Notes: generated from the sequence alone by a model not told the origin. A DNA stretch of 64,000 nucleotides from Actinomycetes bacterium (GCA_025964395.1 JAOPYY010000005.1:7957-71956); one strand, 5' to 3'. Positions 38,119 through 64,000 are shown, counted from the stretch's first letter. Numbers and translations are program-made.

Positions 38119-38274
38119 TCAACCATCCGTGCGTTTGTCCTTGACGAGCTCGACGAGCTGCTCGACCTGGCGTTGCAGCCGCTGCAGCTTCGACCCGATG
38201 ATCACGACGTAGACGAGCACGCCGAGGAACACCACGAGATAGGCGGCGGCGGTGTACTTCTCGGACTGCGTCAT
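38119..38274 (-). CDS. CcmD-like small single-TM protein (51 aa)
   Basis: One TM (AAAYLVVFLGVLVYVVII) followed by a charged coiled tail. Located downstream of ccmA, ccmB and ccmC. An alternative GTG start lies at 38304. Confidence 0.5.
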   Translation of the reverse strand: MTQSEKYTAAAYLVVFLGVLVYVVIIGSKLQRLQRQVEQLVELVKDKRTDG

Positions 38275-38315
38275 GACGCGTGGCCTTTCTGACCCCAATG
38301 CCACGCTCCTCGGTC

Positions 38316-38392
38316 GCGAGCACCAAGCGATGCAAGGACGCAGGTCTTCCCGCTAGTGGTACTAACGGGAAGACCGAGGACGCAGCAGCGCG
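38316..38392 (-). promoter_or_regulatory. conserved leader element, copy 1 (conserved boxes flanking a 10-bp hairpin)
   Basis: Plus strand: GCGAGC-N3-AAGCGATGCAAGGACGCAGG, overlapping by two G the stem GGTCTTCCCG/CGGGAAGACC, whose last C starts CGAGGACGCAGCAGCGCG. The flanks match 63884-63966 at 19 of 20 and 16 of 18 positions. Confidence 0.4.
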
Positions 38393-38437
38393 CCGCGTGA
38401 TCGCGGGCGAGGGGCCTGGATGTTGGGGTTGGGAAGG

Positions 38438-39118
38438 TCACGACAAAAGCTCCTTCAGCTCGCGCAGCGAGCAGTCGAGTCGCTTGCCCGCCAGCTCGAT
38501 CGCATACATCGTCGCGAACAGCGTCAGCATCGCGGCGAGACAGACGCAGAAGGTGAAGAACTGCGCGCCGGTCATCTGAGGCCCTTGCAGCTTGAAGACA
38601 ACGGGATGGATGAACTGCTTCGAAAGCCTGATCGCGAGAAACGACACCGGGATCAGCACGACCCCGAAGAGCGCGTAGACCGCGCTCATGTTCGCGCGCG
38701 CGGGGCCAGGGTCGACCGAGAACCGAAGCATGAAGTAGGCGCAGTAGAAGAGGAAGAGCACGAGAAAGAGCACGAGCTCGTCCTCGCCCCACGACCACCA
38801 GACGCCCCACGAGATGCGCGCCCAGATCGACCCGGTCAGCAGCGTCAGCGCGCCGAAGATCACGCCCTGGTGGATCGCGACGTAACTCTCGAGATCCGCC
38901 CGCTCGTCGCGCCCGCGCAGGTACTTGAGCGCCTTCCATGCGCCCCAGCCGAAGCACGCATAGGACGTCAGGGCGAGCGGCACATGGAAGTAGAAGATGC
39001 GCTGCGAGAGTCCCTGGTCAGCGTCCGCCGGGGCGTAGAAGAACGCGAAGACGACCGCCAGCCCGAACAGGCCCGTGCAGGCGGCCGCGAGGGCAGGCAG
39101 CTTCAGGTGCATCGTCAA
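38438..39118 (-). CDS. ccmC: heme exporter protein C
   Basis: W-rich motif WARISWGVWWSWGEDE and conserved His residues. Six-TM pattern. TTG start, with an ATG 6 nt downstream. Confidence 0.85.
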   Translation of the reverse strand: MTMHLKLPALAAACTGLFGLAVVFAFFYAPADADQGLSQRIFYFHVPLALTSYACFGWGAWKALKYLRGRDERADLESYVAIHQGVIFGALTLLTGSIWARISWGVWWSWGEDELVLFLVLFLFYCAYFMLRFSVDPGPARANMSAVYALFGVVLIPVSFLAIRLSKQFIHPVVFKLQGPQMTGAQFFTFCVCLAAMLTLFATMYAIELAGKRLDCSLRELKELLS

Positions 39119-63022: not shown

Positions 63023-63868
63023 TTACGGGGTGGTGCCGAGCCGTTCGAGGGCCTCGGCCAGCTCCTCGAGCTGAACGTCGCCGTCGACCGGAATCGTCAG
63101 GCCGGCAGCGCCGACCTTCGCCTCGAACCCTATGAGGAGCCGGACTGCGTCCTTGATCCGGGCCGCGCGGGCCGGATCGACCGCGGTGACGCGGCGCTCC
63201 TTCGTCTTCGCTCCGGCCCAGCGGGCCGCTCTCTCCGCGGCGCGGACCGAGAGGCCTTCGCGCACGATCCGCTTCGCAAGCCGCCGGCGCTCGTCCTGGT
63301 CCGGCACCGAGAGCACGGCGCGGGCATGTCCCTCCGTCAGCTCGTGCCGGCCGATCATCGCCAGCACGTCCTCCGGCAGCTCGAGCAGGCGGATGCGGTT
63401 CGAGACGGTGGGCTTCGACCTGCCGACGCGCTCGGCGACCTCGCCGAGCGAGAGCCCGAACTCGTCGATCAGCACCGCGTACGCGCGCGCCTCTTCGATC
63501 GGAGAGAGATCTTCGCGCGCAACGTTCTCGACGAGGCCGAGCAGCAGCGAGTCGCGATCGTCGGCCTCGCGCACGACTGCCGGAACGGTCGCAAGCCCGG
63601 CCTCGCGCGCGGCGCGCCAGCGGCGCTCACCGGCGATCAGCTCGTAGCCGCCTTCGAGCCGGGGGCGGACGACGACCGGCTGGATCAGGCCTTGCGCCTT
63701 GATCGACTCCGCGAGGCCGCTGACGGCTTCGCCGTCGAACCGCTTGCGCGGCTGCTTCGCGTTGGCGTGGATCTCGTCGACCGCGAGGTGGGCAAGCTCG
63801 GGCGTCGCCCCGCCGATCAGAACCTCGAACCCACGGCCCAACCCTCGGCGGGCGGACTGACCGGTCAC
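63023..63868 (-). CDS. parB: ParB/Spo0J-family partition protein
   Basis: LGRGFEVL, PRKRFD, the IQPVVVRP..GGYELIAGERRWRAA arginine patch and an HTH motif. GAGGGA lies 5 nt upstream of the GTG. Confidence 0.85.
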   Translation of the reverse strand: MTGQSARRGLGRGFEVLIGGATPELAHLAVDEIHANAKQPRKRFDGEAVSGLAESIKAQGLIQPVVVRPRLEGGYELIAGERRWRAAREAGLATVPAVVREADDRDSLLLGLVENVAREDLSPIEEARAYAVLIDEFGLSLGEVAERVGRSKPTVSNRIRLLELPEDVLAMIGRHELTEGHARAVLSVPDQDERRRLAKRIVREGLSVRAAERAARWAGAKTKERRVTAVDPARAARIKDAVRLLIGFEAKVGAAGLTIPVDGDVQLEELAEALERLGTTP

Positions 63869-63883
63869 GGGCGTCCCTCACTG

Positions 63884-63966
63884 GCGAGCGAAAAGCAAGC
63901 GAGGCAAGGACGCAGGGCGCGTTCGTAGCGGTGTTCTACGGGCGCAACCGAGGACGCCGCATCGCG
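63884..63966 (-). promoter_or_regulatory. conserved leader element, copy 2 (conserved boxes flanking a 10-bp hairpin)
   Basis: Plus strand: GCGAGC-N7-AAGCGAGGCAAGGACGCAGG, then the stem GCGTTCGTAG/CTACGGGCGC, then AAC-CGAGGACGCCGCATCGCG. Lies 15 nt upstream of the parB start. Confidence 0.4.
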
Positions 63967-64000
63967 CAGCTTTGCAGCCGGCAGGGAGCGGCGAACGGGG

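Follow-up and report, generated by a model that had tools for sequence, protein, structure and literature searches.

The two recurrent intergenic stretches of the window (the whole 64,000-nt stretch of actinomycete DNA that was analysed) are most probably the cores of two copies of a non-autonomous, MITE-like palindromic insertion element of Thermoleophilia and Acidimicrobiia; we assign this reading a probability of roughly 0.7. The identity as a mobile repeat is well supported: the element is multi-copy and strictly intergenic, its copies lie at unrelated loci, and a given gene junction may be occupied in one genome and free in a related one. In the window, copy 1 is a passenger between ccmC and a small ORF and copy 2 a passenger between parB and parA, the latter gene lying beyond the window; neither copy is a regulator of these genes.

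Both stretches are present with the coordinates and the sequence that a sequence-only reading had given for them; its observation is correct but limited to the centre of a larger element. We observed that the 13-mer GCAAGGACGCAGG occurs exactly in the window only as the two 5′ boxes of Table 1, and the 19-mer CCGAGGACGCNGCANCGCG only at 38374-38392 and 63948-63966; other matches to either carry 2-3 mismatches each and are not more frequent than in shuffled sequence. With a covariance model built from 76 non-redundant relatives, copies 1 and 2 reached 77.5 and 76.9 bits (E ~1e-17), and the third-ranked match in the window reached 16 bits only. What had been missed is that the further 50–55 nt flanking the core on each side are complementary to each other, and the unit is a ~164-nt hairpin. 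For copy 1 (folded as 38272-38443), the + strand gave −106.7 kcal/mol (z −8.7), pairing from 38279 to 38442, and the − strand −90.2 kcal/mol (z −7.1).

Both copies lie directly upstream of minus-strand genes, a placement that had been pointed out earlier and is true in the window. Copy 2 is directly 5′ of parB (− strand), whose identity was confirmed by Pfam. The 51-aa membrane ORF that follows copy 1 has no Pfam match. We observed that automatic gene calling and the longest-ORF rule extend the start of this ORF into the element, to 60-61 aa (L123:10803-10985; window 38119-38304); its true start, according to the relatives with empty sites, is the ATG/GTG of MTQSEKY.... In one relative the called start of the small ORF is 9 codons too far upstream and lies in the element.

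Table 1. Features of the two window copies, and loci at which gene junctions were compared or the variant core occurs
Feature	Coordinates or locus	Strand	Description
Copy 1, whole element	38279..38442	+	164-nt imperfect palindrome; spacer between ccmC-like gene and 51-aa ORF
Copy 1, covariance-model match	38316-38399		77.5 bits
Copy 1, left arm	38279..38331	+	terminal inverted repeat, outer stem, 5′ side of P2
Copy 1, SD-like GAAAGG in left arm	38284-38289	-	9 nt before ATG (38272-38274) of 51-aa ORF
Copy 1, 5′ box GCAAGGACGCAGG	38332..38344	+	exact in at least 120 loci
Copy 1, apical hairpin GGTCTTCCCG / 13-nt loop / CGGGAAGACC	38343..38375	+	variable, covarying part
Copy 1, 3′ box CGAGGACGC then AGC	38375..38386	+	
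Copy 1, right arm	38387..38442	+	sequence and fold
ccmC-like gene, stop codon TGA	38438-38440	-	within stem base of copy 1
Copy 2, element as far as window reaches	63869..64000	+	start ~63869; right arm cut by window end after 43 nt
Copy 2, covariance-model match	63888-63973		76.9 bits
parB SD-like GAGGGA in left arm of copy 2	63874-63879	-	parB GTG at 63866-63868
Copy 2, 5′ box GCAAGGACGCAGG	63904..63916	+	
Copy 2, apical region GCG / CGTTCGTAG...CTACGGGCG / CAAC	63917..63947	+	T-G wobble pairs on + strand
Copy 2, 3′ box CGAGGACGC then CGC	63949..63960	+	
S10 operon, S19/L22 junction	L010		filled
S10 operon, L23/L2 junction	L029		filled
S10 operon, L2/S19 junction	L096		filled
S10 operon, L22/S3 junction	L105		filled
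ccmC/51-aa-ORF junction	L123		filled; CcmC 93% identical to window; element 77.5 bits
ccmC/51-aa-ORF junction	L126		filled, core collapsed; CcmC 96% identical to window
ccmC/51-aa-ORF junction	L128		19-nt remnant of two termini; CcmC 91% identical to window
ccmC/51-aa-ORF junction	L124, L125, L127, L129, L130		empty; CcmC identity 87%, 86%, 92%, 90%, 88%, respectively
Acidimicrobiia variant core	L006, L018, L019, L025, L046, L054, L067, L082, L084, L091, L111		

The element is a long imperfect palindrome, with a long form of ~165 nt (flanks of ~52-57 nt) and a short form of ~105 nt (flanks of ~24 nt, without the outer stem). From the outside inwards on the GCAAGG strand, which is the + strand of the window, it consists of the outer stem, P2, the G-C closing pairs, the 9-nt strand AAGGACGCA, the GG/CY pairs, usually a tandem G.A/A.G step (GAG/CGA; fully Watson-Crick at this position in copy 1) and then the variable apical stem-loop; the return side consists of CY, the 9-nt strand GAGGACGCN, and G-C and P2 again. 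The boxes are opposed as a symmetric 9x9 internal loop, with RAGGACGC on each arm, between covarying stems. In copy 1, AAGGACGCA and GAGGACGCA form the 5′ and the 3′ strand of this loop, the GC of each box closes P2, and the GG of the 5′ box pairs with the opposite CY. The G after GAGGACGC-N is invariant among the copies, though it lies outside the search pattern. In the Acidimicrobiia variant, the core holds the AGGACG unit twice per arm (AAGGACGCAGGACGAAGG ... TCGAGGACGAGGACGC), and this duplication on both arms points to AGGACG as the functional unit.

In every copy lined up, the 50–55-nt flanks are complementary to each other, and their sequences differ between copies. The arms are ~50-60% identical between copies and pair up to the extreme ends (for example AGTGCGCCTTCCAG...CTGGAAGGCGCACT), the termini being of several sequence types; the whole hairpins fold with ~−108 kcal/mol on average. 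The element shares with MITEs the terminal inverted repeats, the size (105/~165 nt), the lack of an internal ORF and the location between called genes. The sequence-only reading had described a hairpin that differs in sequence, keeps its position and looks like the product of compensatory change, and this holds family-wide: the covariation score over 76 non-redundant copies was 0.409 versus 0.166 in shuffles, none of 500 shuffles reached 0.409, pairing with slid partners gave at most 0.18, and both-sided changes were found in 18 of 22 pairs. The element is real and recurs, with its conserved boxes on either side of a hairpin that covaries.

We observed two further features of the arms. At ~34-40 nt from the core, the long-form arms show on both sides a secondary TA peak, and in the same zone a recurring GGAAT/ATTCC-like A+T-richer step (for example CAGAATGACG, CGGAATAGCG and CAGTAATGCC); these could reflect a nested or composite origin of the long form. 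In the region of L013:3741-3854, the right arm has an apparent extra insert of ~35 nt (…agcagccggcgtagccggccgacgagcgaagcgaggagtcgcggcgctcagcgcgg…), itself partly palindromic.

Scanning one genome per species (GTDB representatives) with the pattern GCAAGGACGCAGG-N20-50-GAGGACGC, we found the exact core at no fewer than 120 loci, in ~118 different MAGs; further copies in relatives had been anticipated when a covariance-model search was proposed. Among the listed matches, the carriers are Gaiellaceae/Gaiellales, Solirubrobacterales, Thermoleophilaceae, Thermoleophilales, Miltoncostaeaceae, Acidimicrobiia/Iamiaceae and unclassified Actinomycetota. The covariance model detected 130 copies in L001-L120 (~0.87 Mb), all of at least 45 bits, and no matches between ~26 and 45 bits. 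Seven of the 130 fall outside the exact pattern and have 1-3 of the 21 core positions changed; the strong conservation of the core is therefore not a product of ascertainment by the search. L002, L087 and L012 have several copies per 6-8 kb. We observed three copies each in L002 (6.3 kb, ribosomal-protein/secY/adk region) and L087 (8 kb); those of L002 occupy consecutive 158-220-nt spacers between the genes of a ribosomal-protein cluster. Extrapolation from the extra copies per locus and the two copies in the 64-kb window suggests ~10-30 copies per Mb of genome. The search of plasmids and phages by blastn gave no match to the element, and two IMG/VR pattern matches are without the element fold and look like chance. 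No transposase or autonomous element with the same ends was found in the examined loci (8 kb each), and a search of 0.93 Mb for isolated half-elements, which might flank a transposase gene, found none.

Genes were called by a simple GC3-based caller, and every copy is intergenic, with none inside a called gene. The neighbouring genes are convergent at 29 copies and divergent at 14. When ~1,000 flanking proteins (~125 copies) were clustered, the neighbours were almost all singletons and unrelated; a check for gene-context enrichment had been called for earlier, and no gene class is enriched. From the same clustering, similar outer stems in different MAGs proved to be subfamilies at different loci and not orthologous sites.

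That the element is an insertion is settled by identical junctions that are filled in one genome and empty in another. In the S10 ribosomal-protein operon this applies to four junctions, each of them filled by 163-165 nt in a single genome; in the remaining genomes the genes overlap or abut there (TAATG, TGATG, TAGTG, GTGA). The junction between ccmC and the 51-aa ORF is filled in the window, L123 and L126, retains a remnant in L128, and is empty in five Gaiellaceae relatives; by its CcmC homologues, the window itself comes from a member of the Gaiellaceae. In L126 (1373-1490, the orthologue of 38279-38442), the apical hairpin and one box have been lost by a deletion exactly between two direct GCGTCCT repeats, and the remainder is a 118-nt hairpin that has kept its arms and carries a single box at its tip; since collapsed copies of this type are missed by the covariance model, decayed copies are undercounted. 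In L128 (1382-1400), ccmC and the small ORF are separated by 19 nt (CCGTCCCGAAAGGCCACCC) in which the two element termini are joined, left behind either as a footprint of excision or by loss of the entire interior through deletion. At parA/parB, both the window and the Gaiellaceae relative L119 carry the element, at an equal core-to-GTG distance of 35 nt, and in L012 the junction is empty and the genes overlap. The dispersal of the copies together with the filled/empty polymorphism in the S10 operon and at the ccmC/ORF and parA/parB junctions is the behaviour of a MITE.

A different spacer of the same gene region was also long in one relative. In L125 (2587-3000), ccmB and ccmC are separated by 414 nt, with a called 57-aa ORF, and by 15-30 nt in the relatives examined; this spacer gave no covariance-model match and therefore represents a different insertion.

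The ends of the element were finally set by positional TA frequencies. Ends taken from MFE folds of ±90 nt over-extended into the G+C-rich flanks, and a strict rule of TA on both sides with 7 of 8 terminal pairs retained only 35 of 118 copies; both were discarded. Against a background of 1.5% per position, TA occurs 52-54 nt to the left of the core in 56 of 118 copies and 54-62 nt to the right in ~85 of 118. It flanks both ends in 45 copies (~38%) and one end in 43 more, and of the 35 copies with clean TA at both ends, 29 have G as their first and C as their last inside base. Most copies carry terminal TA, in the pattern TA-G...C-TA; the lineage of copy 1 has GTGAC(C) on both sides instead of TA.

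The termini are linked to the codons of the neighbouring genes. In mRNA sense, the filled S10 sites read ...C-TA-[A/G]GTGCGCCTTCCAG......CTGGAAGGCGCAC-TA-ATG..., where the upstream stop codon is TA plus the first element base and the second TA is immediately followed by the downstream start. Inside the terminal stem, 7-9 nt before the start, lies an SD-like GGAAGG, AGGAGA or GAGGAG that pairs with the sequence immediately after the upstream stop. These sites, three of four with TA on each side, fit a model in which the element enters a stop/start junction at its TA and the TA is duplicated; equally, the TA may be part of the palindrome. Genes abutting the element at their 3′ end use TAG as stop in 59 of 95 cases, versus 311 of 824 elsewhere (p = 7.5e-6). 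We also observed that TAG makes up ~38% of the stops even away from detected copies (crude gene calls), which is high for ~70% G+C genomes and may reflect further undetected TAG-ended repeats or the limits of the gene caller.

The element is also oriented relative to transcription. In co-directional contexts, the mRNA is the reverse complement of the GCAAGG strand in 49 cases and the opposite in 15 (p = 2.4e-5). The downstream start abuts the element in ~30 of the 49 former cases and in at most 2 of the 15 latter; hence only one orientation is found in tight junctions. The earlier reading had left the strand assignment open because the G-U versus C-A pattern in the stems favoured opposite strands in the two copies. 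Across the family, the GCAAGG strand folds better in 113 of 118 whole elements, including copy 1, with a mean of −108.6 versus −88.8 kcal/mol for the opposite strand. There are 6.6 G-U pairs per copy on the GCAAGG strand versus 3.5 on the opposite one, and 35 versus 270 A.C single mismatches; the asymmetry is present in every gene context. Among the orthologous copies of the window, L123 and L126, we observed two compensatory A-U/G-C exchanges and three one-sided changes, each of which leaves a G-U pair on the GCAAGG strand and an A.C mismatch in the mRNA. The strand that keeps its pairing runs antisense to both window genes and, family-wide, is usually not the mRNA. Transcription-coupled deamination would predict the opposite bias, and we infer that selection acts on the folded DNA strand or on an antisense RNA.

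A scheme that would accommodate these observations is as follows. The element would insert at TA-containing stop/start junctions, its terminal TA plus G supplying the TAG stop of the upstream gene and the other terminus supplying an SD-like tract to the downstream gene, so as to leave TA-ATG. The long hairpin would bring the stop and the start codon together at the stem base, which a terminating ribosome might melt, thereby exposing the downstream SD. In this manner the insertion would be tolerated even in translationally coupled operons, but only where the mRNA is the reverse complement of the GCAAGG strand. As the core is kept while the stems and termini vary, the symmetric RAGGACGC/RAGGACGC loop can be read as the recognition site of the factor that propagates or maintains the element. 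This factor would probably be a dimeric protein, and the preservation of wobble G-T/G-U pairs on the GCAAGG strand only points to this strand in its folded form, as ssDNA or RNA, as its target. The coupling-compatible design, the core as a protein recognition site and the nature of the folded strand (DNA or RNA) are what we infer from sequence. The element may have a generic effect on translational coupling.

Several observations argue against the MITE-like reading. The examined loci yielded no transposase or autonomous element with the same ends, and 0.93 Mb no isolated half-elements; only ~38% of copies have clean TA at both ends, and the lineage of copy 1 has GTGAC(C) in its place. The termini differ between subfamilies, whereas in classical MITEs the transposase reads the termini, and the core is conserved far beyond what would be expected of a selfish relic. 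We entertain, tentatively and as clearly the lesser possibility, either an undescribed structure-reading system of propagation or a loop bound by a host factor as a coupling or processing module. In the former case, the RAGGACGC/RAGGACGC loop of a single folded strand of DNA would be read by a dimeric protein, which would act at the hairpin base; if so, the stems and termini would be free to vary. Such a logic would be closer to IS200/IS605-RAYT or integron attC recombination than to DDE transposition that reads terminal repeats. In the latter case, binding of the host factor to the loop would make the insertions built-in translational-coupling or processing modules at operon junctions.

A related but unlikely explanation is that the element spread by transposition and is now kept because its folded symmetric-loop hairpin binds a host factor, for example a dimeric RNA-/DNA-binding protein or a nuclease, and would act in the processing or stability of mRNA, insulate the operon, or provide a site related to the nucleoid or to replication. 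The absence of decayed copies at intermediate scores, between ~26 and 45 bits, could indeed mean host-level selection. The limited change of the core (1-3 of 21 nt) in copies that the search pattern did not pick, the two compensatory and three G-U-retaining changes on one strand in the window, L123 and L126, the same core in two Actinomycetota classes and the doubled AGGACG on both arms in Acidimicrobiia point the same way. However, the sites are dispensable, as identical junctions are empty in close relatives, and no gene class is enriched. L126 has lost the core and kept the arms with the operon intact, which shows that the core is dispensable for the host operon, and another relative has lost nearly the whole element, again with an intact operon.

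It is highly improbable that the GCAAGG strand encodes a family of small RNAs whose exposed AAGGA/GAGGA, by mimicking the SD or GGA sites of the CsrA type, would titrate ribosomes or an RNA-binding protein. Pairing is preserved on this strand, with G-U, and two purine-rich GGA-containing tracts (four in the Acidimicrobiia variant) are unpaired in the loop, but coding sequence abuts both sides of the element and thus leaves no room for a conserved promoter, our scan detected no promoter- or terminator-like consensus at the element, and in 49 + 14 contexts an RNA of the GCAAGG strand could arise only as an antisense transcript.

Hardly tenable is the original proposal of a cis-acting 5′ leader RNA of the downstream gene, in which pyrimidine boxes would pair with the SD region or bind a regulator. 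Apart from the placement of both window copies upstream of minus-strand genes and the abutting downstream start in ~30 of the 49 co-directional cases, it could draw on the SD and start codon, which do lie in or beside the hairpin base for the 51-aa ORF and parB; this part of the suggested SD sequestration stood, but the pairing partner is the opposite outer arm and not the boxes. The pairing of the boxes with purine tracts was not borne out, as only 4 + 6 of 119 copies have GCGTCC in their arms, a frequency similar to that of control hexamers. A leader dedicated to ccmD-like/hemX/hemA or parB is ruled out by the empty sites, the outer-arm pairing, this chance-level complementarity and the lack of a promoter or terminator consensus: the flanking genes of the copies are unrelated, and the empty junctions in relatives already largely refute it. 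Moreover, copies also lie between convergent and divergent genes, and pairing is preserved on the antisense strand. Riboswitch-type leaders have a constant site, related genes and retention with the gene; the copies show none of these, and all four orientation contexts occur. In agreement with the earlier statement that no known RNA family was recognised, Rfam 15 at gathering thresholds returned two tRNAs only for the whole window, the best match of the element at E <= 10 was P11 (22 bits versus a threshold of 70), and eight further loci gave nothing at E <= 0.05. An intrinsic terminator was rejected, as the element has no T run or terminator-like site and many copies lie inside ribosomal-protein operons, between a stop and the abutting start.

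Thermoleophilia and Acidimicrobiia are abundant soil lineages, and the carrier genomes found here are mostly MAGs. A ~165-nt repeat located exactly between stop and start codons misleads gene callers, operon predictors and motif hunters, and it offers a marker for strain typing and for studies of insertion polymorphism in metagenomes. It also illustrates how highly expressed, translationally coupled operons, the S10 ribosomal-protein operon among them, can accommodate a long palindrome; the insert appears to bring its own stop codon and SD-like tract, and its fold would set stop and start side by side. No description of it was found in the literature, including a 2024 MITE survey, and the family of MITE-like palindromic insertion elements is real, widespread and, apparently, new to science.

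We compared the element with known repeats. Like the REP/BIME/REPIN sequences (RAYT, Y1 HUH; GTAG-/CGTC-tagged), it is an extragenic palindrome found mostly just after coding regions. In the REP/RAYT system, single-stranded hairpins with a short conserved tag beside the stem are recognised in a strand-specific manner, and the REP tag CGTC is present in the complement of the element box (GCGTCC). REPs are 20-40 nt long, carry one tag at one end, form head-to-head dimers and are not reported in Actinomycetota (PMC3733652). We rejected this identity because the element has 105-165 nt, two identical direct tags around the hairpin and TA-flanked ends. Integron attC sites, like the element, function in one folded strand and conserve structure while most of the sequence varies; the likeness extends to the paired boxes for protein binding, which flank a central spacer that is unpaired, and to a terminal stem that varies. 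Identity with attC was nevertheless rejected, as there is no cassette array by an integrase gene and the element holds no RYYYAAC/GTTRRRY boxes. MIRUs share with the element that they are actinobacterial intercistronic repeats within operons, oriented relative to transcription, but they are 46-101-bp direct tandem units with small ORFs, not long hairpins, and are without a conserved internal loop. MIRU ends reportedly overlap the stop and start codons of the flanking genes, an observation attributed to Supply et al. 1997.

The closest likeness is to the bacterial MITEs (Correia/NEMIS, ERIC, YPAL), which are marked by their size, their palindromic arms and TA ends, by dispersal between genes with both filled and empty sites, and by being co-transcribed as a long stem-loop (PMC2229807, PMC2649163). 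The Correia/NEMIS elements of Neisseria are 100-160 bp long, non-coding, dispersed and intergenic, with inverted-repeat arms, 5′-TA-3′ termini and a conserved core motif thought to bind IHF, and they are often co-transcribed into mRNA with a long stem-loop (PMC2229807, PMC2649163). Their sequence is different, they belong to one genus whereas our element occurs in two Actinomycetota classes, and their termini are the conserved part, whereas in our element the termini are of several unrelated types and the central loop is nearly invariant. We know of no description of preservation of pairing on one strand only for Correia elements. The ERIC/IRU (127 bp) and YPAL/RU-2 (168 bp) repeats of Enterobacteriaceae are imperfect palindromes in transcribed intergenic regions, including positions within operons; the effects of ERIC on neighbouring transcripts in Yersinia depend on orientation and ribosome movement, and YPAL is not A+T-rich, has no strict TA ends and shows empty and filled sites between close relatives (PMC2229807). 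YPAL has the same size as our element, but neither ERIC nor YPAL has sequence similarity to it or a symmetric direct-repeat internal loop, and our element is known from sequence alone.

In comparison with the bacterial MITEs as a group, the element has variable termini and a nearly invariant core of two direct repeats that form the symmetric loop, preserves pairing on one strand, and is present in two classes. This reversed pattern suggests a protein partner that reads the folded strand, and, if that is true, the element sequence would provide a defined bait for such a protein.
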